From assembly GCA_008632985.1 (NCBI GenBank), contig QPGO01000115.1, positions 186,001 to 250,000 of the forward strand: a stretch of DNA of 64,000 bases, written 5' to 3'. Below are positions 9,990-41,760 of the stretch, in pieces (position 1 is the first letter of the stretch; the number at the start of each line of letters is the position of its first letter). The notes under the pieces are model-generated. The model did not search any database and was not told where the DNA came from. It was given only the letters and a program-made list of their open reading frames with translations. The stretch is from Psammoneis japonica (Eukaryota). The position numbers were made by a program, and so were the translations under genes.

Positions 9990-11470
9990 TAGATTGAATC
10001 TGTTCAAGCACTCCCGTGTAGAATGGTCGACCCATTCGAAAGGAGGCAGTTGCTCCATGCGTGCAGTGCGGCGAGCTCGCAATGACCAAGTCTGACTCAC
10101 CAATCAGGTGCCAATCAATCATGGCCTCTGCAAAGTCAGCAGAAGAAGTGTTTCTGGCGAGTTTGCTGTGAATGCCGCGTGCGTCTGTGGTCACAATTTC
10201 TCGTGGAATGACTGTTGAACTCCATTTCCGATTGTCAGCCGGTGCACGCAAATTCGCATCTTGTCCATGACAAGAGTCGATGAACCACTTCTTGAACGGT
10301 GGCAGATCTGCAACCACCATCCACACAACCTTGGCAAATGAGGTTTTGTCATCTTCGCCACCTTTGGAAAGATGCTTCTCTTCGAGACTGAGAGCACAAT
10401 CCACTGCCGGCTGCACCACAGAGACACGGCTTGGACTCACTCCGTCATTGACATCCACAACTTTCAAACCCTTCTCAACCTGGGCAACTTTGTCAGTTTG
10501 CCCCGTTCGAACATAAATCGCCATGACCAAGGCATGTTCATCTCGAAAGAGTTGGTGGGATTCTCGAGAACAAGTCTGACTGAAACTGTGACACTGTGGG
10601 AGCTAGATCAAACAGCCCACCAATGGCGCACGCCATTCCTGTCTCTAGCTGAAAACCTGGAAGTGCCTGATGCAACTCTTTGAGCTTGTTCCGCTTTTGT
10701 TCATTTCTGGTGAGCCATCGAAAACCATCTTTGTGAAACCATCGACAATGCGGAATTAGAACCCCATCAGGAAAGTTGGGGTGTTTGGCACAGATTTTCG
10801 GCACAGACTTTGTGCAGTGGTTTTCATCATTGCAGGAAAAATTGTGCGGCACGGTCCAATTCATTGGGGCCGTCTTTGACAATGGAGCCGGCCCTGAAAA
10901 TGGCTGAAGAACGTGCCCCATTTCCACGTCTTTCCCACAGTCAAACAGAAGTCGGCAACCTTCCAGGGTTGCGGTGACATGTTCCGATGCTGCTTGAGCT
11001 GTCCATGCCGAGAGGCCTTCGTTCCACGCATTTTGCGGGCGGTGAAACAGCACACACTCCGTTTCGTGTTCTCCTGGTTCAGACAAGGTCCAACTGCATT
11101 TCTTCACAAACTGCTCTGATCCGCATCTTGGGAAGCGGCGAGAGACATGAGAAGAAGTCCCACGCCGGCTGAGCCTGAGGGTCAACTTGCACATGAGTGT
11201 GAAGCGATGATTTCTCTGAGAGAAAGACAGATGTTCCAGCCAACAACAGAAGAAGAACAACGAGATTCGGTGTTGAATGGCAGCTTCCTGGTGTCACTTG
11301 AGCCTTTTCTGCTTCGTGTTTTCTTTCTTTGCAAGAGCATTGTTCACGCTCTTCTCCTTGGACGCATGTTGTTTCGAGGTTTCTCCTGAACATTGTTGGT
11401 GTCTTTTCTCGTCGTCATTTTCACACGAAGTCAATCAACAGGCAAAAATGACGCTGGCCGTCATGTCATT
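9990..11470 (-). pseudogene. Fucosyltransferase-like (GT23/GT37/NodZ-type) host gene, disabled
   Basis: AIYVRTGQTD and EAMIDWHLIGESDLVI..S..THGATA resemble the FucT motifs H/Y.R.GD and D..LL...D....S.F; frameshifts; Tyr->Cys/His pattern. Confidence 0.55.
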
Positions 11471-14199: not shown

Positions 14200-15450
14200 G
14201 GAATGAAAACCACAATGGCCAACACGTTTTGCCTGTCACAAGCTTTGTCAATGGATCAGCCAAGTTCGTCTCCGCACCCTCCTTTCCAAAACTCTGACAA
14301 TTCCAGCTGCAGCTGCTTCTCTTGTCGTGTGCTGACAATTGACTGCATTGTGCTTCTTGCACAAAGCAGATTCTGGGATGCTGACATTCTTCGCCACACA
14401 ATGGTTGTCACAAAGCACATTTGCCGGTCCATCAATTGGCACTCCAAATGTGCGCAACATGCAATGGCACGCAATGCAACAATCGTGTCTTTGCAACTTG
14501 CATTGCAGCCAACTCACTGCCAAATGGAGACAATTCAACCATGTTCTGATGTTTGCTGAGCCACATGATCAGGGAGTCATTCACAAAGACAATGATGCCA
14601 GAGTGTGACCTGCACATGACAACATTTCCAGCATGACTTGCACGAACAAAGGCCTGGTCAGTTGCCGCTGGATTCTCACATGGTTTGGGCATCCTGGGTG
14701 GCAATTCTTCCTTGATGTCACAACACAATTCAGTCCAATCTGCCACAGCATCAAACACAGAAGCATCAATCTTGGGACTCTTGGGATTAAAGCCAACATT
14801 CTTCCCCTGCTTGGGTGCTTCTTCATGTGTGTGCATGTGGGTGGTGCAAAGCTTTCAAACAACCCTTCCTTGGATTCACCTGACATCAACAAAGTGAAGA
14901 CACTTCAAACAAAACATCAATGCCACCCAACTTGATTGCCCGGCATCTTGCAATGCCAACAAGTTGCAAGCATCAGGACATCAACTTGGGACTCAACTCA
15001 TCCATCACATCTGACTCTCATCAAGCTTGCACATCATTGCCAGGGTGGATCCTTCAATTGTTCTTCAGAACCTCACCATCTCCATCTTTGCTCAGCAAGT
15101 CTTCCACTGTCTTGATTGTGCTCTTCACACCATCCCTTGGTGAGCTGGTCCAAATTGTTCGGCCACTCTGCATCTGAATCTTCTCTGTCATTGCTCCGAG
15201 AAAAGTCGTGAGCAGCTCAGCTTCGCTCCCAGGCTTGATCTTGCAGCACTCAGCAGTGGACTCAACAATTGACTTTCCTTGGTGCAATGCTGTCAATGGC
15301 ATGTCATCTGTGCAAACCAGTGACATCTTGCAGCACTCATGTCCGTCCTCACGGGCTGCTGCTTGCAGGCGAATGAAACACGGCAGTTTGGTGGTCTACC
15401 CTGCTGTGTCTGTCCTTGTGTCAGCCAAGCGTCACTGTTGAGGTGTCACG
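14200..15450 (-). mobile_element. Second degenerate Ty1/Copia RT-RNase H remnant
   Basis: LVCTDD (RT YxDD with Y->C), DIKEELPPRMPKP, ASHAGNVV..RSHSGIIVFVN, KKHNAVN...REAAAAG, ETNLADPLTK. Confidence 0.85.
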
Positions 15451-15849
15451 ATCAAAAGTGTCACGATTGCTTGGTCATTCTTTTGGTGACTTGCTTGTGG
15501 ATGATGTTCTGTAGAACCACTCATAATTTTTCCCTTGTAAATCTCTCTCTAGCACCGGCTGAGCCACTGTTGGCTGTGTGCCTCAAATTGCATTGGAACA
15601 ACGACAACGAACAAGCGCACGGCGATGGAGGAGAATTTCCCTAAGCAGATGAATGATCCGAGTGACGCAAACTAGGCTTTGCCTTGATTCGTTGTCTTCA
15701 AGTTTCGTTACATTATGAACATGTCGATGGCTCCGCATTGAAAGGCGATTGAGCATTCAACGCTACTTTAGGATGCATGCACATTTGCAGTGATCATGTC
15801 TACTCCCTACTGTATGCTCCTTTTTTGTTGATAGAGGCCAAAGAAGTCG

Positions 15850-17466
15850 CTAACCCGAACGGTCAGATGAGTCAAGGGAGATGTGTACAGGAAATCCACC
15901 CTTCATAGACTCCACCAACGACCACTGGTAGTCACCCGAATGGCCCAGCTTGTCTACAATTTTCAAGTCGGAAGTCAGCAGTATACTCAGGGCGAGTTTC
16001 ATATTCATGAGAGCTAAAGGCTTGCCCAAACATGCACGGGGTCCACCGTTAAACATGGGAAACATAAATGGCGAGGGCTCCTTCTTCTCCAAAAATCGCT
16101 CAGGCTTGAAGACTTCTGCATCCTGTCCCCAGATATCGGTACTCCGCCCCATGGCGTAAAAGCACAAATCCACACCGCCGCCAGCTGGTATCATGTTTCC
16201 GTCTGGCAATGTGTCATTGCCCAAGGCATAGCGAGGATCGTTTGTGACGGGCGGGTGCAACCTCAGCACCTCCATGGCAACGCAGTGCGTATACTTGAGT
16301 CGAGCCATGGTATCGTATGAATATTCTGCGTTCGGTCCCTTGCCACAAGTGGATTCCACTTCTTGAACGATACGAGTTACAACCTCGGGATGTCGGGTGA
16401 GCTCAAAAAACGTCCAACTCAACGAGACGGCGGTCGTATCCCGACCCGCCAGGAGAATATTCATGACAACGTCCCGTAGTTCCTGATTGGAACTCTTGCC
16501 GGCATCAATAAAGCGACTCAACAGGTCAGGACCGAGTGGCGAGCCTTGATCGGCGGAACGTCGCTTCTGCTGAATCACGTCGAGGCAAAAGTCGTCCACC
16601 ACTTGTTTGAGATGACGAATGCGGCGTTCCCTCTTGCTTACTCTTAAAAAGCGTTTGATTTCGAACAGAGGATCGAACAGAGGATCGAGAAAGCGTTTTT
16701 GGCACAACGTGGAAAGTTCATCGAAGGCTTGAGCAAAGGCGGGTGCTTGTGCTTGACCGAGACTGTCTAAATCAACCCCCAAGGCGATTTTGGAGGTGAT
16801 ATCCATGGTCATGCGATAAAACGCATCTTGCAAGTCCACATCAATGCCTTTGGTATCATCCTCCTGCTCCTGTGATGCCGTCCCGCCTGCCACATTATCA
16901 TTTATGGCGTCTTGCCACATCTTTACGGCCTGTCTCAATTTTTCTACCGTCACTACAGCCGTGTGACGCAGCAAGTTGCGTGAAAACATGTTGGCCATCA
17001 ATTTTCGATGCGCCTGCCACGGTTCCCCATCGACGGCAAAAATCCCTTCGCCCAACAATTCCCCCAGGACTCTCCGCCACAAGTCACCCTTGCCATAATT
17101 AGTGAATCGCGATTGCAAAATTTGGCGTACATTGTTTTCGCTGCAAATGTAAAAGTAACAGCCCGGTAATCCTCCAAAATGCGGCATGGGACCTCCCCAC
17201 GTGCGACCATTGTACTTTCGGAATTGTCGCAATGTTTCGGCTGGCCAATCGTCCCATTTGGAAAGCGGGAACCAGAGGTAGCCAATAAAAGGATAACGCC
17301 GCGGCCCTGGCAGGTCAGAAGGTACTGGTAAGGGCTTTATTCGGAGATAGATGATCCACAAAGCCCCAGCTGCAGCAGCCAAGGAGAAATAGATCGTCGC
17401 TGTCGATGGTCCCCATGATGAGCCGGAAAAAGCGGATTCTAAGGAAGACGGCAACCAGGTGATCAT
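15850..17466 (-). CDS. Cytochrome P450 (CYP86/94/704-like), intronless, ~538 aa
   Basis: N-terminal TM and proline hinge, AGRDTT I-helix, EVLR, PERF, heme loop FNGGPRACLG; first ATG at 17466. Confidence 0.95.
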   Translation of the reverse strand: MITWLPSSLESAFSGSSWGPSTATIYFSLAAAAGALWIIYLRIKPLPVPSDLPGPRRYPFIGYLWFPLSKWDDWPAETLRQFRKYNGRTWGGPMPHFGGLPGCYFYICSENNVRQILQSRFTNYGKGDLWRRVLGELLGEGIFAVDGEPWQAHRKLMANMFSRNLLRHTAVVTVEKLRQAVKMWQDAINDNVAGGTASQEQEDDTKGIDVDLQDAFYRMTMDITSKIALGVDLDSLGQAQAPAFAQAFDELSTLCQKRFLDPLFDPLFEIKRFLRVSKRERRIRHLKQVVDDFCLDVIQQKRRSADQGSPLGPDLLSRFIDAGKSSNQELRDVVMNILLAGRDTTAVSLSWTFFELTRHPEVVTRIVQEVESTCGKGPNAEYSYDTMARLKYTHCVAMEVLRLHPPVTNDPRYALGNDTLPDGNMIPAGGGVDLCFYAMGRSTDIWGQDAEVFKPERFLEKKEPSPFMFPMFNGGPRACLGKPLALMNMKLALSILLTSDLKIVDKLGHSGDYQWSLVESMKGGFPVHISLDSSDRSG

Positions 17467-17949
17467 GGTATGAGAAGAAAGCAAAGCCCTGGTAACAACA
17501 TAAGCTTGTGTAACATTGACGTCTGATTGTGAGACAGCAGACAGCACCTGCACAATAGCCGTGGATCGAATCGACCGGATCGAGCTTTTCTCTTTTTTTT
17601 TTGCACTGCACGCGGCATTTTTTTACCTGGTGTGGGCAGCAGGTTTTGATTAACTCGACTCGAGCGAAGCGAGAGTCAACTCGCAAAAGTAACCCGGATG
17701 TTAAAGTGGGGAGAACAAACAACTCTGCACAAGCACCCATCACCAAAGGCATCTCCTCTCAAAAGGACAAGGAACAACATTTGAAGCAAAGTGCAACATG
17801 CAGACAAGGAGCTTGTGCCAAAACAGAGTGTCTGGCCACAGCACCAGTGGCTGCAACAAAAGGCAAAGCAGCAAGAAGCAAAAAAGATGCACAGAAAGCC
17901 AGAGGAAGAGGGGCAAGAGCTGGGGTGCAGAGAGGAGAGTGGTGTGTGC

Positions 17950-18480
17950 TGTGCACTGAAGAACTGGGTGGAAGGGGTGAACAAAATGCCAAAAAGGGAA
18001 AATTGTGAGACTGTTTTGGGCACCAAAAGCAAGCAGCAGTTGAGAGATGCTCTGCAGCGTGTTGTGCTGTGACCCAGCAGCAAGAGAGCTGGCTGCTGCC
18101 CCCCAGCTGGCCCCAGCCAAGAAGGCCAAAGGTTGTCCGCAGCCAAGCAGCACCCCACAAAGTGTTTTCAATGCCATTTTGGGGTGTGTGACAGCTGCAC
18201 CAGTTGAGATTTGCCTCACAATTTGGTGTGAAACAAAGTGTGGCGTGCAGACAAGGAGAGTTTGTGCAGAACCAGTGTGTCCAGCTACAGCTCTGATGGC
18301 TGCAAGAGGCAAAGCAAAAGAAGCCAGGATGGCACCACATGCCAGCTCTCACAGAGAGCCCTGCTGCATGCTGCATCTTGAAGAATCAGGTGGAAGGGAT
18401 GAACAAGATGCCAAAAGAGAAACTTGTGAGATGGCTTTGGGTGCCAAAAGCACAAGCAGCTGAGATTCTCTACACAGCAC
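17950..18480 (+). repeat. Diverged direct repeat (~100 bp core, ~420 bp spacing)
   Basis: gaagaactgggtggaaggggtgaacaaaatgccaaaa (~17958) vs gaagaatcaggtggaagggatgaacaagatgccaaaa (~18380). Confidence 0.7.
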
Positions 18481-19790
18481 AACCCAGCAAGAGCTCATTG
18501 CCACCACAGCAAGCCAGCTGAGAAACTCTGCATGTTGTCCATGACCAAGCAACACCTTGCAAACTGCAAGTGTTCTCAGCACCACTTTGGGGTTTGGCCC
18601 AGTTGTTGTTGAGAGCTGCCTCACAAAGAACTGCTGCTTTGGTGCTTGTTGCAGATCTGGAAAATCATCTCTTTGCAGCTTTGGCAAGGAGCTCCCCAGC
18701 ATGATGATCATGAACAAAAGCAGCAGCAGCAGCAGCAGCAAAAAAGCAGTGCTCTGTGTGTTGGAGCAGCAAGAAGCCAGAGCAACAACAAAAAGAAAAG
18801 ACAAAAAGCACAGACAAGTTCACAGGCATGCAGCATCTGAGGTGGCCAGAAATGATCTCCAGCACATGCCAAAGCCCAAGGTGAGCAGCAGCAGAAATCA
18901 GAAGCAGGGCAAGGAAACAAAGGCTTGCTTTTGTGAGGATGGCATGAGCAAAGTCAAGAAGCCACAGCGCCAAGCTTTTCGGATGAATTGCACAATTTTT
19001 GTTAAGAAATCAAAAACAAACAGGAAAATCGGCGAAAGCGTCATTGAGACATCATGCCGTAAAGTGAGACACCGGCAGCACGCATCATTGTGGTGCTGCA
19101 GTTTGTTGCGTGGTGCCTGCGAAGCATGCATGTTCATCGATGCATGTCGGCAATCCAAACTGAAAATTGACCCATTGCCTTTCTGTCTTTCTTCACAATT
19201 GTGGATGTCACTTTGTGGCGCACACAGGGGAGATTTGCAGCGCACACAGAAGCAGAATGACCCCACAACGTCAGCAGCTCTTTATGTGTGCCATAAACTT
19301 CACAGCGCACATGGGGCCACTTGCTCAAAGGATGACCGTCTGCGTCAGCAACGTCGTCATGTGCGCCAACCCACACCATTTGACGACCTGCCCTGCACGC
19401 GCATGAACCGGAGCCGGTGTCCTCTCTCTCCACGTGGAGCTTTCAGTTGAAGTGAGATCGACAAAGCTCGAGCACCACAGCAGCTTGCCTTGGTTCAGGG
19501 GGGAGTGGCTGGTGCCCAGGCAGGTGAGAGATGTCATAAGAAGTGCAAGTGGCTCTGTCAGATTGGTGGGGCAAAAGCTGCTTGTGCTGCTGGTGCCGCT
19601 GTGTTTTTTGTCTCCCATCCTTTTCTTCCAGCACACACTGCCTGCAGCGCTGGGAGAGCTTTCCAAAAGCCAACCCTTGGCTGCAAGTGCAACATCAATG
19701 GGAAACAAAAAGTTGCCCACTTGTGCTTTGTGAGCCCAGAGGCGTGGCAGCACCCAGCCACTGCAACACTGCACAAAGGCTCAAGCCACA

Positions 19791-20066
19791 TGACAGGAAT
19801 TGAAGGCAAATGGCAAGAATTCAAACAATGACTCCTTGCTGCTGTCTAAATGGCAGATGAGTCTCCGCTCAGAGACCATCATGGGAGCCGAAAGACGTGC
19901 AAGTCGGCACAATCGGGCTGCTGTTGTTGTTCTTGTGATCCTTGTGGCTTGAAAGCAAACTGCATCGCGCGCGAATGCGCGGAACTAAAGCACACAAAAC
20001 TGTGTGCGGCAAACTAAACAGCACGCGACATTTCGCGTGCACCCAAATCCTGTTCAAATCCTGTCA
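19791..20066 (-). repeat. 3' LTR of the Copia element (276 bp)
   Basis: Aligns end to end with 27002-27278. Confidence 0.95.
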
Positions 20067-20099
20067 CTCCCCAGTTTGCTTGAGGAGCCACAGAAACAG

Positions 20100-23000
20100 A
20101 TTCGACTTCGGATGGAATGAAGTTCCAGAACATGAGGGGGCGGAGAAGGTCCCAGATTTGGGAGTGACCCCAATGCTTGCTGAGAATGTCAGCAGGGTTG
20201 CGGGAGCCTTCGATGAAGTGGAACTCAAGGCAACCAGAGGCAATTGCCTCACGCACACGGTGGAACGACAGTGCGGTGTGTCACTTGTGTAACTTGGAGT
20301 GCGGGATGGAGGCACTGTCTACAACCGACTTGTTGTCACCGAACATGTGACTGACATCACGGATCGGGACGCCAAGGCAGCGCAGGGTGATGCGCAGGTC
20401 GACAATCTGCTCAACACAAGTCCTTGCGGCAACAAATTCAGACCTGCAGGTCGCAGTCTCCACGGTGGCTTGCTTCTTAGAGAACCAATCAGCTGGGAAT
20501 TTGTTGAGGAAGTGGAGCATTCCCATGACAGAGCGTCCGGTGAGCATGCAATGGCACAAGTTTGCATCGACGCAGTGGGTGGCAGTGACGAACTTGCCAA
20601 GGGGCGGTGGAGCGTCCTTCGGGATCATCTCTTCTGCTTCGCCACACACTGAATGCATCCATTCATGGGCCGGAGCAGGGAGATCCGAATGGTTGGGCTC
20701 TTCTGTGCGAACGCGGAGAGCGCCGTGTCGCATCTTGGAGAGGCACCCACAGACGCGTTTGGCACGATCCAAGTGGCCTTGACGGGGTGCAGCTCGGAAG
20801 CTAGAGAGTGACATGATGGCCGTGGCAATGTCAATTCGACCAAGGGACACTGCCCATTGGAGGGAACCAACAAGAGACTGGAACTTGTGAATGCCATTGG
20901 GCTCCAGCAGTTCGGAAGTGTCCAGTTCGGGGTGGTCACCCTTCTCCAGAGGTGACAGGGCATTGGTGGTGGGTTTCTCCCCAAACAGTCGGGTGCAGCT
21001 GTCGACCATGCGCTCGATGTACTTGCGCGGAGACAGGCACAAGGTGCCGTCGGGATCCCGGGAAAAGTCGCAACCCAGATGGAACTCAATGGGTCCCGCA
21101 CCCTTGAGCTTGAACTTGCACTTTTCCGTGAGAGTGTCGACAAAAGATTGAGGGTCCTTCACAGCAATGGCGAGGTCATCCACATAAATGGCAATGCATT
21201 CACAGTGGTCGCCGTTCCTGCGCATCCAAATGTCGGGTTCGGCGCGGCAGGGGAAGAAGCCTTCAGCTCGCAGGCAGTCGGCGAAGCGCTCGTGCCAGCG
21301 GAGACCAGAGCTGCGCAGTCCATGCAGGGCCTTGTGGATGACAAGGATGTGTCCTTCGAGTTTGCCAAGTTCGGGTCCGGCCATAATGTAGAGCTTCTCC
21401 TTGGTGGTGGCTTCAAGGCAGGCATTGCCAATGTTGGTGGCCCATGTCTCCAACTCGTTGAGTTCGGCCAGGAAAATCATCAGCCGAAGGCCACGGAGGG
21501 AGACTGCTCTGGAGTGGACACTGTCGATGGGTGCATCCGTGAGGTGCCCATCGGCTGCGAGTCGTGCCTTGTGGCGACCGTCGTGTTTCACGTCGTGCAC
21601 CAGGTGCACTCGGATCTTCTTGTGTCCCGCAGGAGGAGTGGAAGACTCGAAGGGCCCGCAGTCATGGAAGACTTCGTACTCCTCGAGTTGGTCCATCTCG
21701 AGATTAGTTGCGTCTCCCCATTTGCGGTTGCCGTTGCGTTCGTCCAGTGACATGGCGTGTTTGCAGTTCCGGGGAACTTCGTGTCCGCACTTGTGGCGAG
21801 GTGCAGTGCAGAAGGAGCGAAGCTTGGCTTGGTTGGCCATGCGAAATGGCTTCTTCTGGCGCCTCGCGATGGTGCGGAACCGCTTCCAGCCATCAGTGTC
21901 GAGAAGTCCGTTCTCTCGTGCATAGATGGCGCAGGTGACGGGGTCATCCTTGGCGATGATGGCAAGAGGCTCGGACGTGATCTCCCCACTTTCCCATTCA
22001 AGCATGATGTTGTAGCTTGAGCCTTTCCAGGTTGGGTCATGAGGCTTCAGAGGTCCTTCGTGTGACACGATGCGTCGAAATTTCCAAACAGCAGTGTCTT
22101 CGTCTTCTTGCTCAATGTGATTCATGATGTCGTTGTGGGCAAGGACTTCCTCGCATTCGTCGTTGTTGACAGAGCAGACGAATTTAGTGAGCTCGGGATT
22201 GCCGTTCACTTTCCATTCGTGGTCTTTGATGGCCTTGACGATGCAAGCTCTGTGGCGTTGTCTGTCCTCTTGTGGCTGCATGAGGAAGGTGCGTCCGATG
22301 ATGTCTTGCGGATCGAAAACTGGCATCTTGGGTGTCCTGATCTCCCCATCAGGAGAATCGACGGGGTTGTCGTCATGGCGAGATTTGATGATGGGTTCAG
22401 GTGGCTCCCCATCAGGAGGATCAAGACGCAGGTTTCAAACGGCAGGATCAGTGGCAGCGGATCGTACGTTGGACCGGTGGAGGATCTTCTGAGTCTCGTC
22501 AGAGAGAATCTTGAAGGTCATCTGGTGGCCGACGTGCTCAGCAATGCCAACAAAGCATCCACGCAACTCACGGGATTCGGACGGCCAAGCGGAGTCATCG
22601 AGGTGGAAGTGCATGGGTTCCCACCAGTGAAAGTGAAGCAATGGGCTGATGTCCGGGGTGGAGCCAGTGAGAGTCTCGAGGGGCGTGTGCCAGTGGAGAC
22701 ATGGGGACGCTGCATGGTTGAGTGTGAAGCACACGCACATGAGCGCCAGCAGCCATGTGTGGGCAGGCGAACCGAAACGATCCATGACAGTGTTCGCCAT
22801 GTGCTTCACGGTCTGGTGTCGACGCTCGGCAAAGTTTTGGTGTTGCTGGTGAGGCTCACTTTGCCAGCTGGAGATGAAGAGGGCTCGCAGGATCCCGAGC
22901 ACCTTGTTGCTGATCTCAACTTGAGCACGGTCGCCAGTGAGTTTGGATGGGGCACCACGCTCACGGATCTGATCCTCGAGTGTGTTGACAAACTCTTTGT

Positions 23001-26000
23001 CCATCTTGGTGCCGCAGACGTCAGTGACGGTAGACTCGGTGCCAACAAACAGTTGGGCGCTGGACGCGTTCCAGCCCTGGGTGGGAGCTCGCAGTGCTGA
23101 TGTGTGACAACAACAATTTTTGTCATCCGTCGCATGTTTCGCACGTAGATTTCTACGTGTGACATTTAAAAAAAATTGTCCAGACTCGCTGTTTTGCGAA
23201 GCCCCAGACGTTTTACATGACAAATTTACAGAAACAACAATGCGCGCCAGTTGCATTCTTCAATGTCTGAAGAATGTAACTGGCCAAGTAAAAAATGATG
23301 TGCTTCAATCATGTGCGAGTTTGTGCGTTCGCAAAATTGCCTCATTTTCTGTTTGCGATCATTGACATTTTAATTGCTGCACAATTTTGCTGCGGAGCTC
23401 GCACGCAGAAGTCTACGGGCCCAATGTCACACAGATTCCCACCCACGTCTGGAACGCGTCGCTGGTGCAACCAGAGTCGACGGCCGGGGTGTTGGCACAA
23501 ACGGTGTCAGTGGCGACAGGCTCGTTGCGGCGGTGCACATTAAGGGCGGGGTTGGGTGATTTGTGGGCCTTCCCAAGGTGTGCACCGGTGGGCATGCGGG
23601 CGTGCTGCGTGGTGCAGTCAAAAGTACGACGGACCGTGTCAGCAGGCAGGAAGCCAAAGCAAGGCCAAAGAGACTCGAAGGGGGGGTCCTTGGGCTGCAC
23701 AGTGCGCTCCGGGGGTGGAACATCGTCGTCCTTGGGGTCAGTCGTGTGCAGATGACACTCGCAGAACACGTCGTCGTTCGGAATGAGGTGATCGGCAGAC
23801 AAGGAAGCGGACATGATGGTCTCGTTGACAATGACACGATGACGGCAGTTGCCGTGTTCGTTGAATGGGTTGGCAGTGGGATCGTCCTGCAGGTCAGAGA
23901 TTGTGTCGCACCACTGGTCATTGTCAGTGACAGAGTGATCGAGGACGGAAGGATCCCATGTGTCATCACCAGTGAGGAGGACATGGGGCAGGGTGTCCCA
24001 CTCGGTGTCAGTGTGAGGTCGCATGGCAACATGAGGCAGGCCGCCCTTGATGTCAATGGGGATGACACAGCCATCAGGAGTGGCAATGTGTTGCAAGCCG
24101 TTGGGCACCTTGACAGAGCGATCGTTGACATCCTGTTTGCACCATTCGAGCTGGCCGCAGGAATGAATGGTCTTGCCCTTGCCCGTGCATGCGTGCTGAT
24201 GGAGGATGGCGATGACGGGACCATGCTGGGTCTCAATGACGGCACCAGCGGTGACAATGGGGATGTCCACCAATTGATGGTCATCAATGCCCTGAACGTC
24301 GACTTGGCGAGAGGTGCATGCAATGACGCGAACGTCGTCGCCAGCAATGCTGCCATTGGCCCCACGATCGACTGGAGCACCAGTGCGTGTGGAGCGATGA
24401 GCAGAGGCAGAGCAAATGACATTGTGGTCATTGACGCGGCAGCAAGTGCGGCCGTTAAGTTCTGTGTCATCGGCAGGAACTGGCGGGGCAGAGGGAGCGG
24501 CGGATGGCCCCGGCCGACCAGCGTTGGGGGCTTGGTTAGGAGACAACAGACGTTGCAGATCACCGGGTGGCAGTGGCTTGCGCTTGGTGAGGTGCGCCAG
24601 GATGGGATTGTCCAAAGTGGCACCCACATTTGGAGCGGGGTCACCAGAGTCAGCAGGAGTCGTGTTGGACAAGTTGACATCACCGTCACTCCCAAGGCGT
24701 TGGTCGTGAAGGTTGGCCGCAACGGACTCATGGCAGTTGCTGTCTTGCGGGTTGCGGGGAGGCGGACGAGAATGCTCGAGGATGATCGCCTTGGAGGAAT
24801 GGGGCAACGAATCCCAAATCCGTTGGTGGTTGGGAGGGAGACGTTTCCATTGGTCACCGGCGAGGCTGGGACCACGGGTGCAGGCAGCGCCAGCCTGAAG
24901 GACGTCAATGTCGCTGTCAATGTCGTAGAACACATCGTCGGACGGTTCCTCGGAGCAGATGTCGTGTGCACACATGGCACGTCGGGGAGCTTGAGGTGTC
25001 ATCTTGGGTTGAAACGTGCTGTCGCATTGAGCCGCCGCGGAGAGGAGCAAGCCACAGCATTGATCGCATGTGAGGCTCTTGCCACTCTGCGTGCGATGCT
25101 GATCAGCTTGGTTCTTGACAGCACGGAGTTCCTCGACAGGGTGTGCGGCATTCTCGAGCATGACGCGCTTCTGTCCTTCAGAGAAGTGGTCACTGGCCGG
25201 GATGAGTGCCTCGCACTTGCGCAACTGATCTTGCCAATGAAGGATGAACCCGTGGGTCGGACCTTTCCAAGTGCCATCACCAAGACGTGCGGTGGCAAGG
25301 TGCGTGAGCAAGGTGGAGGACTCGACAGATGCGCGGGTGGAGGCAAGCGCATGCTCAGACAAGGCGCGGCAGACGGTCTGGGCATCAGAAGACCCCACAT
25401 TTTCGCGAATGAGAGCCTTGCCCTTGTCGGTGAGAAGGATGCGTTCGAAGACGGCGAACATGTGCTTTTGCTGTTCAGCAAAGAGCAGTTTGTCTTCGGG
25501 GCTGGTCGGTTTGTACGACGAGTCTAGAGTGCACTCGACATCTTGGGCACGGGCTTGTGCCACAAGTGAGGTGTGCCAAGTGTGCCACTGCTTGTCGGAT
25601 TTGAGAGCCGTGAAAGCGGTGGGGTCACGCTTGATGCCTCGCTTGAAGTCTCGCACCGGGTCGCGTGCCTTGGTCGGGTTGGTGACATGCGGAGGTGCGA
25701 GGGGTGAGCTGCCGACGGACACAGAAGACATGCAGTCGGGGCTGAGGCGGTGGGCAAGGAACTCGTCATGCGTGAACAACGAGGAGTCATTGGCAACGTC
25801 AAGACCTTCGTGTGCTTTGACAATGTACAGACTAATTAGAGCTGCTAACATGTTCTTATAACCGCGGGGCAAAGGGATCACATCAGTGCCGTTGTCGCAC
25901 TCAAGCGAGTCGATTTGGGACGGCATGAACGTGAACAGTTCTTGATGCGAGTCCGTGCCGTCTTGGGTCAAAGCCAAACGAAGAGGGCTCCCAGCACCTT

Positions 26001-26064
26001 GGGCAAGCACGGTTCCAACAACGTGCTCGAAACCATTGGTTTGTTGCTGACGAGTGAGAACCAT
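20100..26064 (-). pseudogene. Copia gag-pol polyprotein, disrupted by a MITE, a frameshift and a premature TGA
   Basis: ATG 26064; gag RDFKRGIKRDP; protease VDRGANG; integrase PVATDTV..., QSEPHQQHQNFAERR; RT YVDD; RNase H VDAN..TGRS, KKQATVETAT; premature TGA at 20281-20283 (probably CGA). Confidence 0.92.
23063..23460. mobile_element. MITE (398 bp, ~24-bp TIRs, 4-bp TSD GCTG) inserted in the Copia integrase
   Basis: Left GACGCGTTCCAGcccTGGGTGGGA; reverse complement of right end GACGCGTTCCAGacgTGGGTGGGA; GCTG at 23059-23062 and 23461-23464; removal restores ...DSGCTS-AQLFVG. Confidence 0.9.
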
Positions 26065-27001
26065 GGTAGACAGAAGTGGTGTCAGGACAAGCAATTCTTG
26101 TTGGGAAGCGAAGATGGACTTGAAACTTGGGTGAGAATGGACTTGACTTGAAGTGGACTTGACTTGAAATCTTGAACTACCTTAAAATCAGAAGTCGCCG
26201 GGCTGTGCTATCCCGTTCGTTGTCAAGTGCTAAACTTCCCATCTGGTCCGCAGAGTTGTGCCGGCACGTCCGAACCCGCAGCCAGCGGCGCTTTGGGTTG
26301 CTTGCAAGCAGAGCAGCGGGTTGTGAACCCCTGCAGGCAAGCTGACTGGAGGTGGACAAGACCCCCGAACCGTTCTTGTTTTACATCGGTTGGATTTCCC
26401 GATCAGGTTGGCCAGTTGACGCAGGTGTCAGGCGCTGTGGACGAACGAACAAACGCGGGAAAACACCCTCGCCCCAACGCAGGCTGCAATCACGGCTGCT
26501 TGCTCTCACAGTCATCCTCGTGGACCTGGTGGAACTGCAGAGCACCAGCAGTCCAGGGTGGATCAGGTGCAATGGACTCAGTGTGCTTGTAGAGTGGCAG
26601 CAAAACCGTGGTCCGAAGAGTGGGTGCAAGTTCTTGGCCGTGAAGACACGCACACATGTGCATGGCTTCAGCGACGAAGATCCTTGAATGTGCGGGGTTC
26701 TTGACCGTTAACCGATGAACGGGTGTGTCAAGGGATGAGGATCAAGGATGGACTTGGATGTGTCCGTTGATGCATGTCTTCAGCGATCAAAGGCAGCACA
26801 ATCAATCCAGATGTCCAGCGGCAAGGAGACTTGACGGTGACGTTAAATTCCTGCCGATGCCTGGTGTTGAACGCACGTGGACTTGCCGATGCATGTAGAA
26901 CACACACGGAGGTCCACACAGAATTTAAGTGGAGTCGTCGGTAAATCAACGACGACGATGGCGGTTGCTCAATGGGTTGACAATGAGCAAGACTGTTGGT
27001 C

Positions 27002-27278
27002 TGACAGGGAGCTGAAGGCAAATGGCAAGAATTCAAACAACAACTCCTTGCTGCTGTCTAAACAGCAGATGAGTCTCCGCTCAGAGACCGTCACAGGAGC
27101 CGAACGACGTGTGAGTCGGTGTAATCGGGCTACTGTCATTATTCTTGTGAGCCTTGTGGCTCGAAAGCAAACTACATCGCGCGCGAACGCGCGGAACTAA
27201 AGCACACAAAACTGTGCGCGGTAAACTAAACAGCGCGCGACATTTCGCGCGCACCTGAATCCTGTTCAAATCCTGTCA
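27002..27278 (-). repeat. 5' LTR of the Copia element (277 bp)
   Basis: Aligns with 19791-20066; followed by TSD CCACA. Confidence 0.95.
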
Positions 27279-30200
27279 CCACAGCACCAGAGAACAAGAG
27301 AAGACACTCTCTCAGCGGCCCAAAAAATCTCTTGAGCTCAAGCACACAAGAGTTCTCTTGAGCACAAGCACACAAGAGCACAGGAGGCAGCTGGCTTTAA
27401 CTTGCCCCTCAGATTTGGCAGCAATTTTGAACTTTGCCTTGAGTTTCTTGGCATCTCCAGCCAGACAGGTTGCCTTGAACAAGCTGCCCACTGGGGCCAT
27501 GTGATGCTTTCTTTTTTGCATGATGGGAAAGAGCAGTTTTTGCCAAGTGCTGCAAAAAATGGAGCTTGATTTCCAAATGCCAAAAAATTCTTGCTGTTGG
27601 CAAAAAGTGCTTTCTCTGTCAGATCCTTTGAAAGCTGAAAACCAACACCAATTTTTTGAATCTCACATTTCAGGGGCAACAAGTGGTTGTTGTGTTGGCT
27701 TGTCAGGATCTCCAGCATGGCTCTGTGCTCCCCCAATCTCATCAAACTTGCAAGCATGGGCTGCAAGAAAATGAACTTGATGACAGCAGCTCAGTCAACA
27801 TCAACTCAAGTGCCAGTTGGCAGAAGCAATGGTGGCAGCAAACATCGACAAGATCTCCATTGTCAATTGTGAGAAATTTCCACCTTTCTGCATGGTTCAG
27901 TGGGGTGGGGGGGTGAAAAACTGAGGCATCACTTGTGCTGCCATTTTCTTTGCACTTGTCTGCAGGTTTCTCAAATGCTCACTCCCCATGAGAAACTTTT
28001 TGCACAGCAATCATGAAGCAAAGTTTTTGCGAAACTGAGATGTCACCACAATGTTGTGGTTGTTCCACTTTACAATGAGAGGCCCACCACGCTTGTCTGC
28101 AGGCTTCCAGGTTGTCACACACCTTCAAAAATGAGTGGGGTCACTCTTTTGTTCTTGCCAAAGATGATGCACATTTGTTTGTTGCATGTTGCCATCAAAG
28201 CAAAAACATCATCCATCATGACTTGAACAAGTGCAGACAATGCATTGAAAAAACACTCTGACTTGTCATCAAGACTTGTGTTGTTCCTTTGTGGCCATTG
28301 CCAAATCCATGAAGAAGAGTGTCAAAAAGAGTTCTGCACTTGGCAATCTGAGAAAGAGAGAAAGAGATGTGTGGTCCTGCCCAAATGCACCAGAGCCATC
28401 AAATCTGTTGTTCTTGCTGTCAGCACGCAGGTGCTCACTCAAGAAGGGGGCAAGGATGCACACTCCTTGTCTGCATCATCCTCCAATGTGCACTTCTTTT
28501 TCTGCCAAAAAAGCCACAAAACATCAAAACAGCAATGTTTGGCACCACTTCCACACTGCTGCCTGCTGTTTCTCAGACAGTGCCTCACTTGTTGGGCAGA
28601 AGCTTCTTGTTTTACAGTGCTGATGTGTTGCTTGTGCATGATCTCCTCTTGATCTGATGCCAATGGCTCCATGCAGCAGAGCTGAGACACAAAAAAGTTC
28701 CACCACCAGCATCAGATTGAGAGAAAGAGATGTTCTTACAATTGATGCCAGCAACAACAGGAAGCTGCACAACAAGCAATGTTGATGCACTGGTCACAGT
28801 CATTGAAGAAGCTGCATCATTGTTGGATGTGTCCATGCCTGCTGACCAAGTGCCAACCACAACAATGGGTCAAGGGACACCAGGATTGGCGATTGGCACA
28901 CGTGAGTGTTGTCTTTTTTCCTCAGCACCTGTGGATCAACATGTGAGCAGACAAATTGGCCAGCAAGCATGAAGGTCAACACGTGTTTGATTTGACACAA
29001 GCAACTCCCTTTCCTTGTTGCCAAGCACATCTGAGTCTGTCAGATGGCAAAATTGCAGCTGGGTGAAAAGTGAAAAGTGTCAGTCCATTGAGCAGTTGTG
29101 GCCGCTGTCCCAATGGAACATGTCTGACAACAAAACAACTGGGATGAAACAGTGTGACAGACATGATTGGCTGAAAAGTGCTGACCTTGTTTGAAATTTT
29201 TTAAGAAGCGTGTGTCAACGGCAAAGATGATTCATGAATTTCTCCCTGCAAATGAGATTGCCAACCAACACAATCCAGTGAGACCATGTCATTGCCTTGA
29301 TGCTTGTGAGCACTCAATTGAGAACAGGGATCACACACTCAAATGTCCTGACAATGAAGCCTGGTGACAAACTTTTTTCAAGGCCTTCACAAGCATTGTG
29401 ACAAGATTGATGCTGTGCCCCCCTCCCCTGCAAGATTTCCTTTTGTCATCTGTCAAGGCACAGCTCTGTGACCAGATGGTTTGCCAGAGTTGGAAGCATG
29501 GTGCCCCATGCTTCATCTGCTGTGGAGACCTCAGTCAGATGCTGGCTGGCATCAACAATTGTTCAATGGTTGCTTCTCAACCCTGTGGAATGCCTTCCAG
29601 GAGTTGCACCTTCAAGAGCTGGGACTTCCAACATGGCATCAAAATAAAAACCATCTTCTCCAGCATGGGCACTTCTAATCAGATCACACACATGACACAT
29701 GGAGGTCATGGCTGGGCCCTTGGGAGAAGCACAACAAGGCAGCTCATGATGGGCACAATGCAGACACTGAGAAATCCTCTCAACACTGACAAGCAGAAGC
29801 AGAGCTTGCCACCACACACAACAAACACCAAGAATCATGTCTTGCAAAGGATGGAGAAGTTCTGATGGATCATTTCTCTGGATGAACACATGACACATGG
29901 CACCTCTTGGATTCAGAGCTGGGTCACCATGGCAATCGGCACAGCTGGCAAAGGAGTGGTTGTGCTTGAAATTGGTTTTTGTTACAGTCATTGCCAGCAA
30001 CAGCAGCAGCAGCAGTGAGAGCAAGAGATGGCAGCAACAGCAGCAGCAGCGAAAAGTCATTTTGTGAGTTTTGTGTTCTGTTGACACAAAACATTGAGAA
30101 GCTGCCCATGAGAAGAAGATGACCCACCTTGTTTTTGCACTTGTGCACTGCAGTTGCACAGCTTCATTTGTTGTGGAACAACTTGTGAAAAAAGAGCTCT

Positions 30201-30685
30201 CTCTCTCTCACACACACCAGGCTTCCATGCCTCCCAGTTGTGCCCCAGAGCAGAAAAATTGGCTTGCCACCACCTGGAGCTCCAGCAGTGCATTGGCCCA
30301 GTCCCCCCCCCCCCCCCCTGCAACTTGTTTGTGCATGCTGTTGTGGTTGTGTGTCTGTTGCATGAATGCCACCACTAGTCTCTTTGGCGCTGACTGTACC
30401 ATACGTGTAGCGGATACGCAAAGTGGTCGACAGAGCTAGCGAAATTGCCAATTTATGTGTAGAGGTAGAGCAGCTTGTTTAGAACCTCTATCCAGTGCGT
30501 CATGTCATTTTAAGCTCCTCGGGAAAGCACTTGATAAAGTACGACTGCATCCCGCTTGTTAAGAAACTGAACTAGGGCCCTATGTCACGCAAATTTCCGT
30601 CGGTGGTTTCCATGGACGAGTAATAACGATGAGGAGCCGGCAAATTCTTGTCGTGCACATGGTACTTTCTCTATTTTTAAAGTTT

Positions 30686-32450
30686 CTAGGTATTCCTACT
30701 ACCTACCGAAACGAAAAGCGTACCTGCCATATTGGTACCGGAGTAGGAATGAAGTGCTACCCTTGGCGATCCGTCCACTGGCTTGGAAAGTCTTCCATAT
30801 ATCTCATGGCGAAATGCGTTCTCGAGATGCTGGCCCGTGGTATAAATCTTGTCTGAAAACCTAATTGCTTGCCGCGGCACCTTTGTGACAATATGCATCT
30901 CAACCATTGGAACCCGCTCCTCTAAAGTGAGACCATAACGATTTCGAATCAAGACTGTGAACAAAAATATGTAGTCCCTTTTCCACTTTGAACTTTGTCA
31001 CGGGCTAAGACTGAACAGGGTCTTAAATTACGGAGTTCAAATAATCGAGGTGAAAACGCCCATTCAAATACAGAGGCTTCTCCAGCTGTACCCTCCACGA
31101 CCTCGTCCTTGATCTCTCTGTATCGATAAAAACAGGATGCAAATAGATGTTCGGTATGGATGAGCCGCCTGTTCACGTTGCGTACGTAGCCGACTTGTCA
31201 CAACGTCTTCCATCACGTAAGCAGGTGTGTACATGTCTGCGCCTTCAACAGGTTTCCAAGATCCAACATGACGATCCCTCGCTTCTTGCCATGCTTTTCC
31301 ATAGTCGATGAAGACTTCTTGTCCCGGAGCTGTGTCCTGCGCAGCTACAAGTTCCAGCAAGAGACTCGTCTTATTAGATGAACGAGTCTCTGCTAACTTC
31401 TTTTCAATCCAACCGTTGTCTATTGAATGCTGAGACCATTGTAGCTTTGTTTGTCTTTGTTGACTAGGTTGACCAATGGCGACTACGGATAAAGGAGGAG
31501 GGAGGAAATTGGCATGACCAAGACAATATTTGAGCAGGAGCTGGTAGCCATCAACGACAACATCGCCTGTCTGTATAAGCTTTTCCGCAATGGTCCTGGG
31601 CCTTATTGTTCGCGTGGAGAGGAAAAGGCTATGGAACGTGAATCAATCACAACCACGGGTACGGGAGCAATTACCGATCTCTTCTTTAGCAGCCTTGTCG
31701 CAAAGGCACCCCGCCAGCATCGAAGTACCCGGTTTCCAATTGTCGAGGCACCAGGCATTCTCCTTCAACCATCGACTGATCTCTGATCTTTGGCTCGTCT
31801 ACACCGTTCAAGCTTGAAATACGTTCTTGAAAGTAGCCTCTGCCGTAATTCACAATATAGTTGTGATAGTGCGTGATTGCTCCTGCACCCGGAGAGCTTG
31901 TTCGAACGAGATCACCTTCACTCTCTTGGGGAACAACGGGCAAAAACTTTGATCCAGAAGCGCTGCCGAGACCGTTTACTAGCATACCCATCCCAGTTAT
32001 CACAGAAAAGACCTTCCCGCCTTCATAGAAGCCACCCGATCCTTGTCTGTCCCGCCCAGGTGTAATCTTGGAGTAGCCGACGTAATCTGTGGGCATAAGT
32101 CGCGTTGATATCTGCAACTTGAATCACGAGGTCACCGAAAGAAACAGGAACGCCTCGAGTTGTTTCCGCCATGGTAAAGGCACCGCAGCCACTGTTGGGA
32201 ATATATGATTCGGCCGTGACGAGACTACATGAGTGTGGGACTGGGTCGAAGGAACGGGTAGTCTCATCTGCTTGACAGCTCCTCTCAATCAAGAGATGTA
32301 CCGGCAATGGTATTACCGGTATGCTCCTGCAGGAAAAGTATTTTTGTTTCCGGGACGGAATGATCGGTAGTTGCTACTTCTTGGAAGACGCTGCCAACAA
32401 CCAGTATCACTTTCGCAAAGAGGCTTGCGTATTTCCTCCTTGTGCCTCTC
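30686..32450 (-). pseudogene. Diatom-type secreted SET-domain-like protein, frame-broken
   Basis: CSLVTAESYIPNSG.G.F, GMGMLVN, SPGAGAITHYHN, A.QD.APGQEVFIDYGKAWQEA..RHV..WKP, VPRQAIRF.D..YT..QHL.NAFRHEI; several stops and frameshifts with normal TA content. Confidence 0.65.
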
Positions 32451-32749
32451 ATCACTGTCTTTCTTGGTAGCCGAAACTTCGATCTTTCGGGGGCGACGCC
32501 ATTGTAATGCTCTCTGACAACGTCTGACGCCCAGACGGAATTTCGCGGCAACCGTCAAGAAAAAAATTTGAATTTTTGAAAATCTCACCAAAAAATTCCA
32601 ACGGTTTTTCTCGGCAGCGGCAGCGTAGCGGCAGGCCCATGCCGGTTCCGTACGATACTTTCATCTCTCCTTTATTTGATCCACCACTTCGAAACAGTCA
32701 TACATATATCATAAGAGTAGGGTATCTCGACGTACAGTATTTCAGCGAC

Positions 32750-33606
32750 ATGAAGTTCTTACAAAGATTGTTCCAGTTGAAATGCGTATGGTTTGTCCTT
32801 TCAAGCGCGGGCGCAGAGGCGAGAACAAGCAACCACGATGGATTGATTCGGCCGTCTCACAGCAAGAAGTGGGTAGCTGAAATTGTCGGAAAGCGGTTCG
32901 GTCTTTTAGACAGTAGCTTTATCAGTCGTCTCAAGGATGCCAAAGAATCTACAGAGCCATTCGCTGACTTTCTCAACAAAAGAGTCATTCAGTCCTCGGA
33001 CAGGGTGACGACCTTGTGAAGCCTGGTTTCAAAGAGGCGCAGCCCCGGTTAACACCAATCCGTCTTGGAAGCATGTCGCTAGTCACACTAGTTCTTACCA
33101 AAACATTGAATTCGTGCAAGTGTTTAACAAGTCAAGACGTTCCCAAGAATGACGAAAAAGAGAGGCGTCGATGGTGGCAGCGAAGACGAAAAGTCTCTGC
33201 CATTCACGTAGTAAAGAAAAAGTGTGATACCGTCATGAACCATGGATTCTATGCATTGCCTCCAGAGTGTCAATGTGCCATTGGGGTGTTTAGTGGCCTT
33301 CTGCTGTGGCCTCTGGCATGGTCTGTAGGACCAACAGCTCTTTTTGAAGGCAGTATCGCCTATCTCGTTACCGGCGTGGATAGTATGAAACAATCTTTAC
33401 GAAAGACAAATGAGGCAAATCAAGGTGATGATAAAAAGACAATCATTGAGCTAGTGGGATTAATGACAGTCGTGGAAGCAATCTTTCATCGAATTCAGCA
33501 ACGGCTTCCCCGTGACATCCGATCCGTTGCACCAAATGTGCGTCGTGGATACCTCAGCGGTGTCATTGCTGGCTTGGCGGTTCACATTATAGTAGGACAA
33601 CGATAA
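32750..33606 (+). CDS. Hypothetical membrane protein (signal peptide, C-terminal hydrophobic segments), one frame break near 33016
   Basis: Adjacent ORFs 32576-33019 and 33016-33606; ATG at 32750 followed by a hydrophobic leader. Confidence 0.4.
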
Positions 33607-33829
33607 TGCCTGCTTCTAGGCGAGCTTTTTCAATGATTTTTTAATTTATAAGAAAGGTAGTGTGCAGATGAGTAGCATTTGTAAAGAAAATACAAGGCAG
33701 GCAAGATCAATGTCACGCAACACCTTTCTACCATGTAACTCTTTTCGCAACACCTCGTCACCTTGGCATATGTGACTATTTTCAACTACAATGTCACTTT
33801 TTTCTCTCTCTACCGGCAGCATGTTAGTC

Positions 33830-41634: not shown

Positions 41635-41760
41635 CGTGTTCAACAACAACAACGACAAGCAGGAAGCAACAACAAATATCTTGAAAGTTTTGTGAGAGAA
41701 AGTCACAGCTCGAGCAGGTCGGAGGGAGAAAGGTGAATTTCAATCTTTTGTTCTTCGAAA

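Follow-up and report, generated by a model that had tools for sequence, protein, structure and literature searches.

Unequal long terminal repeats of a diatom Ty1/copia element suggest mutation of the integrated copy at TpA and CpG steps

Why do the two long terminal repeats (LTRs) of one retrotransposon, which begin as identical sequences, now differ at about every tenth position, and nearly always within the same kinds of dinucleotide? The question is raised by a 7.5-kb element of Ty1/copia type from the diatom Psammoneis japonica, located at 19791–27278 of a 64-kb window that comprises the whole stretch of DNA analysed (64,000 nucleotides, positions 186,001 to 250,000 of contig QPGO01000115.1, assembly GCA_008632985.1; the positions below are those of the window). 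In retroviral and retrotransposon reverse transcription, as is established, one set of templates gives rise to both LTRs of a new insertion, which are hence identical. The answer that we favour, with a probability of about 0.75, is that the chromosomal copy would have been mutated after its insertion, by transitions confined almost entirely to the self-complementary pyrimidine-purine (YR) steps.

Differences between the two LTRs

A repeat search returned a direct repeat of 272 nt with 89% identity (19796–20067 and 27008–27279). When one gap of 1 nt was allowed in the pairwise alignment, the LTR limits became 19791–20066 (276 nt, LTR_A) and 27002–27278 (277 nt, LTR_B), both on the minus strand. 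The alignment of LTR_A with LTR_B has 277 columns with 29 substitutions (27 transitions and 2 transversions) and 1 indel. YR dinucleotides hold 26 of the 29 substitutions while covering only 146 of the 277 positions (hypergeometric P = 1.05e-5), and the two copies differ at 3 of the 131 non-YR positions. Sorted by state, seven sites have TG in one copy and CA in the other (LTR_A/LTR_B is TG/CA at 4 and CA/TG at 3), six have CG in LTR_B against TG (4) or CA (2) in LTR_A, and five have TA in LTR_B against TG (3) or CA (2) in LTR_A. A preliminary description, made by manual alignment, had counted the same 18 sites among about 21 that differ, and the computed alignment reproduced these counts. One further site, at 27105–27106, is AG in LTR_A and CG in LTR_B, a transversion; at 27105 the other genomic copies (see below) read A at 99% of summed depth, so that the extra CG of LTR_B is derived and not retained.

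The private CG (6) and private TA (5) alleles are distributed very unevenly, with 11 of 11 in LTR_B and none in LTR_A (two-sided binomial P = 0.001). This agrees with the earlier claim that TA and CG alleles are kept only in the LTR at 27002–27278, the derived CG at 27105–27106 having stood outside the 18 sites of that claim. If TA and CG are taken as ancestral, all 11 single-copy losses fall in LTR_A and the two ends were hit unequally, as had also been proposed. LTR_A, which retains only 3 TA, each of them in CTAAA, is the more heavily mutated copy. The differences are scattered across 27011–27257 and do not cluster in a tract.

Of the 11 changes private to LTR_A, 4 are G>A on the sense strand, 2 are C>T, 3 are T>C and 2 are A>G; at the seven TG-versus-CA sites, LTR_A has TG four times and CA three times. 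Changes in both directions indicate that both strands were hit, as expected of double-stranded chromosomal DNA, and they rule out editing of RNA or of cDNA as the only cause. Because RNA editing or error before reverse transcription would mark both LTRs alike, the 18 YR differences arose later, unless the pair was disturbed.

These differences also bear on dating. The p-distance between the LTRs is 0.105 (Kimura two-parameter distance 0.117), the value for non-YR positions is 0.023, and transversions amount to 2 of 276. The divergence of 10.5% overall, against 2.3% at non-YR positions, supports the suspicion that LTR-divergence dating overestimates the age of this element, and an all-site clock would overstate it about 4–5 fold.

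The element and the direction of change

The reverse transcriptase (RT) and the gag-pol frame lie on the minus strand, so the element is a minus-strand element in which LTR_B is the 5' LTR and LTR_A the 3' LTR. Its gag-pol is a single reading frame (20284–26181, minus strand) of 1966 codons with 5 in-frame stops (TAG at 23415–23413, and TGA at 23361, 23307, 23262 and 22437), to which full-length metagenomic homologues align at 20125–23169 and 23434–24150. Pfam places an RT domain of the Ty1/copia type, RVT_2 (PF07727, E = 8.5e-24), at 20998–21633 on the minus strand, corresponding to residues 232–443 of the open reading frame (ORF) 20281–22326, with a score of 84.9 bits against a cut-off of 31.6. 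Pfam detected an integrase family neither in the 19791–27278 element nor in the intact homologues, and a PDB sequence search gave no match; upstream of the RT, where an integrase would be expected, homologues align as far as 24150.

The LTRs are bounded by TG...CA ends (TGACAGG...CCTGTCA) and flanked by a 5-bp target-site duplication, CCACA, with a left copy at 19786–19790 and a right copy of the same 5 bases at 27279–27283. The probability of a random 5-mer match in the CA-rich surrounding DNA is 0.0022, and the intact duplication argues for one single insertion event. A putative polypurine tract, read off the flank of the alignment, is at 20067–20075 on the minus strand (CTGGGGAG on the sense strand), directly upstream of the 3' LTR. 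With an RVT_2-type RT, direct LTRs with TG...CA ends and a 5-bp target-site duplication, as is typical of Ty1/copia, 19791–27278 appears to be a structurally complete, dead Ty1/copia LTR retrotransposon of 7.5 kb that is nested in older repeat DNA. Within the 64-kb window blastn found the element itself and no second copy, and a 21-nt word of the LTR scanned against metagenomes gave 0 matches.

The coding region allows the direction of change to be read. A search with the RT/RNase H ORF gave 1,250 homologues, the most similar being 67% identical; 120 were listed, and the first 60 of these were aligned, which gave 382 columns that were at least 80% conserved. The element departs from the consensus at 43 of these 382 columns. 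Conserved tyrosines were changed at 16 of 21 columns (11 to Cys, 3 to His, 1 to Trp and 1 to Phe) and kept at 5, whereas conserved arginines were changed at 0 of 30 (Fisher P = 3e-9). A second alignment, of 43 homologues of at least 1000 residues that included the region upstream of the RT, gave 17 of 21 for tyrosine and 0 of 36 for arginine. We classified the departures by reverting single letters and asking what one step explains: 20 of the 43 are explained by TA>TG/CA, 9 by CG>CA/TG and 2 by another transition, and 12 require a transversion or multiple changes. Since change of TA or CG to TG/CA accounts for 29 of the 43 departures, and TpA is depleted (observed/expected ratio, o/e, of 0.15 in the element interior), TA is ancestral and is being lost, not gained. 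Moreover, losses at invariant residues are not transmissible through a replicating lineage. The assumption of the preliminary description that TA is ancestral at the LTR sites is thus supported by the polarity of the coding region, and only in part by other copies, which are readable at only 3 of the differing LTR sites.

Two general causes of such a bias were rejected. GC-biased gene conversion is not dinucleotide-specific, and only 2 other transitions occur among the 43 coding departures; selection for low UpA in the element does not agree with changes that destroy conserved tyrosines.

Other copies of the family were read from contigs of run X1 (runs X1–X4 belong to the one sample that contains the stretch, from which the assembly may derive) that were placed on 26300–27480 at a likeness of at least 80%. 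There are 3,520 such contigs, and for 690 of them the likeness reaches 99% or more. Across the unique flank, where the depth is 57, the X1 k-mer contigs show no difference at all, and the summed depth in the LTR is thousands of times this value; the family is therefore very abundant, although summed depth is no copy number. Of 90 positions of change counted in X1, 81 are transitions. For 40 of the 91 variable places the states were compared, and 35 of them are transitions inside YR dinucleotides: 21 with TG/CA here and TA elsewhere (12–88% of depth), 8 with TG/CA here and CG elsewhere (6 of them at 93% or more), 5 with CG here and TG/CA elsewhere, and 1 with TA here and TG elsewhere.

The seven TG-versus-CA sites, at which the two copies would have changed differently, could descend from TA or from CG. 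LTR_A lost 6 of 22 CG that LTR_B kept. All 7 of the sites lost in LTR_B are also lost in LTR_A, for which the probability is about 1e-4 if they are CG-derived and 0.04 if they are TA-derived; the latter value would be higher if susceptible contexts were lost earliest. Only one double site, 27120–27122, is visible in the other copies, and there A at 27121 makes up 77% of the summed depth, which fits an origin from TA or CA and does not fit CG. At the three-state sites 26530/1 and 26559/60 in the 5' untranslated region, the share of A exceeds that of C, which only an origin from TA allows. These data are suggestive, not proof, that most TG-versus-CA sites descend from TA.

TpA loss across the window and in other copia elements

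The depletion of TpA is not limited to the element. Host-gene DNA (1–3000, 15501–17500, 30501–34000 and 39001–57000) has TpA o/e of 0.26–0.99, mostly 0.4–1.0, and CpG of about 1. A first class of repeat blocks (3001–6500, 11501–15500, 17800–19000, 27279–30300 and 34001–38500) is fully depleted, with TpA o/e of 0.00–0.10 in most windows, CpG mostly 0.00–0.17, and TG+CA of 1.8–2.0. A second class (6501–11500, the element itself and 57001–64000) has TpA o/e of 0.00–0.34, with CpG mostly still at 0.6–1.0. Two members of the second class, 6501–11500 and 57001–64000, resemble the studied element (TpA 0.00–0.22, CpG mostly 0.4–0.9), and no LTR pair was found for either; the position of 6501–11500, nested between two fully depleted blocks, suggests that it is another younger insertion. 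The edges of the blocks against host-gene DNA are sharp at the 500-bp scale. A cytochrome P450 ORF at 15853–17622 on the minus strand (590 aa, PF00067, E = 4e-64) is intact and has normal dinucleotides, forming an island between two depleted blocks, and the change to depleted DNA occurs within about 200 bp of it.

The element itself is inserted in such DNA. The older repeat DNA on its left (17800–19785) has almost no CG and TA left, apart from a piece at about 19000–19600 where CG is present and TA scarce, and the 190 bp next to the element contain 2 CG and 0 TA. On its right (27284–30300), 3 kb of older repeat DNA contain 0–3 CG and 0–2 TA per 200 bp. The interrupted DNA is more depleted than the insert, indicating that the older sequence is further along the same process. 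TA is lost faster than CG.

Taken together, the data show the A:T>G:C change at TpA, and the TpA depletion coupled to CpA and TpG enrichment in clustered windows with normal host genes, that are expected of TpA hypermutation, and also the CpG loss with an excess of TpG and CpA, confined to repeats, that is expected of CpG decay. In the element interior (20067–27001), TGA accounts for 115 of 142 stop triplets in the three sense frames, and long overlapping ORFs exist on both strands because TAA and TAG have nearly vanished; one spurious ORF of 654 aa is on the plus strand at 23563–25527, and a gene caller would report such false proteins. Among 93 long ORFs of the repeat blocks, the host P450 was the only Pfam match, and 0 of the 92 ORFs in depleted blocks were recognised. 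A tblastn search with the full-length homologues gave weak copia RT/RNase H remnants of 24–38% identity at 5314–6177 and 14180–14752, both on the minus strand and inside fully depleted blocks.

The loss of TA depends strongly on neighbouring bases. Its extent was estimated from 36.0 kb of depleted and 25.7 kb of normal DNA, both from the same window. The survival of TA was 0.63 in TTAA, 0.28 in CTAA/TTAG, 0.19 in GTAA/TTAC, 0.12 in both CTAG and ATAA/TTAT, 0.10 in GTAG/CTAC, 0.066 in GTAC, 0.033 in ATAG/CTAT and 0.005 in ATAC/GTAT; ATAT did not survive at all, with none in depleted DNA and 118 in normal DNA. These values fit a model in which each strand contributes one factor, determined by the base on the 3' side of the A (A about 0.79, G 0.35, C 0.26 and T about 0.1), and the two factors are multiplied, so that susceptibility follows the order T > C > G >> A. 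The LTRs obey the same rule. The 3 TA shared by both LTRs are all in CTAAA, a resistant context (survival 0.28), and the 5 TA kept only in LTR_B are in GTAA (2), CTAC (2) and TTAT (1), with survival of 0.10–0.19. LTR_B therefore looks like an earlier stage of one process, not like a different sequence.

A similar pattern was found in metagenomic homologues. Among the 120 homologues listed, of 1,250, 117 carry 0–2 Tyr>Cys/His changes at 22 conserved tyrosine columns, and three carry more: P0107 (18 of 22), P0074 (9) and P0118 (5). Eight relatives of P0107 on metagenome contigs (L001–L008, 76–82% identical) have TpA o/e of 0.41–1.07 per 1-kb window, most at 0.45–0.8, and two of them, L001 and L002, have intact ORFs. 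These two agree with each other at 737 columns, and P0107 departs from them at 95: 32 differences are single TA>TG/CA steps (15 and 17, without strand bias), 6 are CG>TG/CA, a further 26 are transitions of other kinds and the remaining 31 cannot be reduced to one transition. This spectrum points to the same kind of damage in other marine copia families, and the Tyr>Cys/His signature in three unrelated metagenomic copia proteins suggests that the process may be widespread in marine protists. The unmutated relatives L001 (1–300 and 6373–6672) and L002 (593–807 and 7084–7298) also have LTR-like direct repeats, 100% and 98% identical respectively, and an ordinary TpA content, and L001 appears to include portions of two copies, tandem or nested, with a likeness of 92%.

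Two features of the host-gene DNA were also noticed. A 91-nt direct repeat (41548–41638 and 44754–44844), 76% identical and 3.2 kb apart, has copies that each end in the reverse complement of ATG, and the two may represent 5' ends, related to each other, of adjacent genes on the minus strand. The host gene at 55135–56433 encodes a type III pantothenate kinase with a Tudor domain, whose named relatives are from diatoms (Thalassiosira, Cyclotella, Attheya and Skeletonema) and are at most 46% identical to it.

Explanations weighed and known systems compared

The timing of the changes can be judged from their extent. LTR_A lost 5 of the 8 TA seen in LTR_B, or 12 of 15 if the double sites began as TA. 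This loss matches the loss of tyrosines in the interior (16 of 21), so that no editing before insertion is needed. Together with the hits on both strands of the LTRs, it upholds the central claim of the preliminary description, that the mutation happened in the chromosome after insertion. The retention of TA follows a gradient along the element: the 5' 1.5 kb (25779–27278) has 26 TA where 83 are expected from composition, and the remaining 6 kb has 34 where 283 are expected (P = 8e-5), corresponding to TpA o/e of 0.30–0.33 and 0.05–0.23, a difference of about threefold. The DNA just outside LTR_B is fully depleted, and therefore the neighbourhood is not the cause of this gradient.

We propose that two processes may act on the repeat DNA. 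The dominant one would convert TpA to TpG or CpA, that is, A:T>G:C on either strand, with strong dependence on neighbours; the slower one would be classical CpG>TpG/CpA decay, as expected for methylated transposon DNA. Both would drive every YR step toward TG or CA. The two LTRs would then represent different stages, LTR_A being near saturation for TA with about a quarter of its CG lost, and LTR_B about half-way for TA with no detectable loss of CG. The TpA process is probably enzymatic and targeted; a thymine modification is an alternative to a DNA adenine deaminase, and the present data cannot separate the two. The CpG part is presumably deamination of 5-methylcytosine. That the action is on the integrated chromosomal copy we infer from one LTR pair, in which 5 TA and 7 TG/CA sites differ.

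Some observations weigh against mutation of the integrated copy, or against its details. The reading comes from one LTR pair, and neither a repeat search nor a search in a purine/pyrimidine alphabet, which is blind to transitions, found a second pair in the window. No listed X1 contig spans the 26300–27480 stretch. At 26693/26694 the family has all four YR states, which a simple two-process model does not give in one step. In the interior, TA>TG exceeds TA>CA on the sense strand (15 versus 5, P = 0.04), a bias that a strand-symmetric chromosomal process does not predict and that leaves room for a transcription-linked bias or some contribution at the RNA level. (The coding departures likewise show CG>CA over CG>TG at 8:1 on the sense strand, which we set aside because synonymous changes are invisible to a protein-based test.) Using other genomic copies to polarise the TG/CA sites, as had been envisaged, succeeded only in part: 27121 reads A at 77%, but only 3 LTR sites are readable, 27132 is split (TG 52%, TA 48%), and at 27105 the LTR_B allele is the derived one. 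An origin of all 7 TG-versus-CA sites from TA, with equal hidden losses in the same direction, would also imply some 22 TA in the original LTR, a high number for this genome.

The alternative that survives best is that one LTR, most simply LTR_A, was replaced through ectopic gene conversion, or was taken by the assembler from a different copy, so that the differences are between copies and carry no information on when the changes at this locus arose. The presence of 3,520 related contigs with none listed across the stretch agrees with it, and since most variable family sites are YR transitions, a foreign LTR would look alike. We nevertheless consider it unlikely. The matching 5-bp target-site duplication excludes a crossover between two insertions, and the differences are spread over the whole LTR, not in a tract. 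The concentration of all private ancestral-type alleles in LTR_B agrees with the 1.5-kb TA gradient in unique sequence, which a swap of the LTR leaves unexplained. Even under gene conversion, the copy-private losses of conserved tyrosine postdate the last functional ancestor.

Changes made before or during integration, by ADAR-type A-to-I editing, by deaminase editing of single-stranded cDNA or by RT error, are very improbable. RNA editing gives like LTRs, yet 18 YR sites differ, and the two LTRs carry neither the single-strand pattern nor the likeness expected of editing before integration, the directions being 7:4 for private changes and 4:3 for double sites. The preliminary description had argued against ADAR-type editing and RT error on the ground of unequal LTRs, and the mixed strand directions strengthen that argument. 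In principle, editing of cDNA after plus-strand strong-stop synthesis could separate the 3' from the 5' LTR, but it predicts one direction per LTR, and 4 of the 11 changes private to LTR_A, as well as 3 of the 7 double sites, run against that direction. ADAR prefers a 3' G, which is not the order T > C > G >> A found here. The sense-strand A>G excess at TA in the interior is in favour of such editing, as is the T before the edited A, which matches the upstream-U preference of ADAR noted in the accessible text of a preprint (bioRxiv 10.64898/2026.01.13.699255). Against this, the loss of TA after insertion already equals the interior loss, and depletion has gone further in the older host DNA than in the younger insert.

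It is slightly less probable still that every change is a C>T deamination of methylated cytosine, at CpG and at CpA/CHG, as in repeat-induced point mutation (RIP) or in plant transposons, with TA as the derived state. LTR_B would then have gained 5 TA and LTR_A lost 6 CG, and the TG-versus-CA sites would be CpGs that were hit on opposite strands. A single, well-known chemistry would suffice for this, the two LTRs would have received similar numbers of hits (13 versus 12 events), and it accords with the CpG methylation of diatom transposons reported in the accessible portions of two papers (PMC2806351, PMC6604790). It predicts TpA enrichment, yet every repeat block shows a 5- to 20-fold deficit of TpA, and conserved tyrosines (TAY) became Cys or His at 14 of 21 columns, the opposite polarity. 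It also requires LTR_A to have been hit solely at CpG and LTR_B solely at CpA (6:0 versus 0:5, Fisher P = 0.002), and seven CpG-derived double sites are as improbable as calculated above, the share of A at 27121 not fitting CG either. Finally, modified bases cause systematic miscalls on some platforms, but an artefact in which modified bases in repeats made TA and CG read as TG/CA is scarcely credible, given the exact match of the X1 k-mer contigs to the unique flank, the 690 of 3,520 contigs that are at least 99% like the stretch, the fact that at a given site the copies variously read TG, CA or TA, a mixture that would not come from a deterministic miscall, and the Tyr>Cys/His signature in three metagenomic homologues from other sources.

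Mutation of the integrated copy thus remains our preferred reading, and it can be extended. Tentatively, and with a little less than even confidence, we suggest that diatoms may own a dedicated, repeat-targeted editor of chromosomal DNA that changes A:T to G:C at TpA (TAT > TAC > TAG >> TAA), a mirror image of fungal RIP that, together with CpG decay, would turn all self-complementary YR steps of a transposon into TG/CA, erase TAA/TAG stops and tyrosine codons, hide transposons from profile searches, and is perhaps shared with Bigelowiella, beyond the limits of one eukaryotic supergroup. If this is true, a defence of the genome that works by mutating integrated mobile DNA at TpA exists in a second algal lineage, only very distantly related to the first. 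Such a process was unreported until a 2026 preprint, and the LTR pair offers evidence, from sequence only, for chromosomal action. The context rule, by which ATAT is erased and TTAA spared, would serve as a fingerprint in the search for the enzyme and in recognising the process in other genomes. Its practical effects would include false ORFs in all six frames, mutated transposons missed by Pfam annotation, a gain of G+C in repeats and inflated LTR dates.

Among known elements, those nearest to the one studied here are the diatom Ty1/copia elements of the CoDi groups, which according to the accessible text of Maumus et al. 2009 (PMC2806351) are 5.2–8.1 kb long with LTRs of 153–844 bp, and have LTR pairs 94–100% identical, which were read as recent insertions. 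The RVT_2 RT, the short TG...CA LTRs, the length of 7.5 kb and the 277-bp LTR are like theirs and within these ranges, but the LTR pair here is 89% identical, due to the YR-specific mutation. No report of TpA-specific transposon mutation in a diatom was found in the literature; a mutation-accumulation paper on P. tricornutum lists CG, CC and TG as mutagenic contexts and, in its accessible text, does not mention TpA (PMC6604790).

Three other processes share part of the pattern. Like the CpG decay of methylated transposons, CG>TG/CA change is confined to repeats, older blocks are nearly CpG-free and 6 CG were lost in LTR_A, but such decay cannot yield TpA loss or Tyr>Cys/His and is the slower of the two processes here. 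Like fungal RIP, the changes are restricted to repeats, chromosomal and transitions only, hit both strands and have sharp edges, and they kill transposons, spoil LTR dating and distort dinucleotide content. RIP is C:G>T:A, mainly at CpA, and enriches TpA, as described in the accessible text of PMC2621366; here the direction is the mirror image, with TpA destroyed and G+C rising, so that RIP itself is not indicated and no fungal machinery is implied. ADAR and APOBEC editing also leave transitions in clusters within retroelements, ADAR having a preference for A preceded by U/T, but they act on RNA or cDNA, on one strand, and leave LTRs alike or strand-polarised, unlike the differing LTRs hit on both strands here.

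The closest known system is the TpA hypermutation of Bigelowiella natans, of a kind described so far only in one 2026 preprint (Mettrop et al., bioRxiv 10.64898/2026.01.13.699255). In its accessible text, mutation-accumulation lines gave de novo TpA>TpG/CpA changes in chromosomal integrated viral DNA; the changes were almost only A>G and T>C, and all were on TpA. The genome has windows poor in TpA and rich in CpA and TpG, reverse transcriptase and DDE domains are over-represented among its TpA-poor coding sequences, and the authors proposed an ADAT2-like DNA adenine deaminase of the ADAT/TadA type. As in the integrated nucleocytoplasmic large DNA virus (NCLDV) and virophage DNA of Bigelowiella, the changes here would be A:T>G:C only at TpA, chromosomal and confined to foreign or mobile sequence, with TpA depletion and gain of CpA and TpG. 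The differences are several. Bigelowiella is a rhizarian chlorarachniophyte and the present host a diatom, that is, a stramenopile, in which the targets are LTR retrotransposons and unidentified repeat blocks. TpA o/e falls to 0.00–0.10 here, against 0.45 in the NCLDV region reported there, and CpG loss accompanies it; a tetranucleotide context rule is visible here, and none is seen in the accessible text of the preprint. Their evidence is experimental, from mutation-accumulation lines, and ours is drawn from one LTR pair and from composition.

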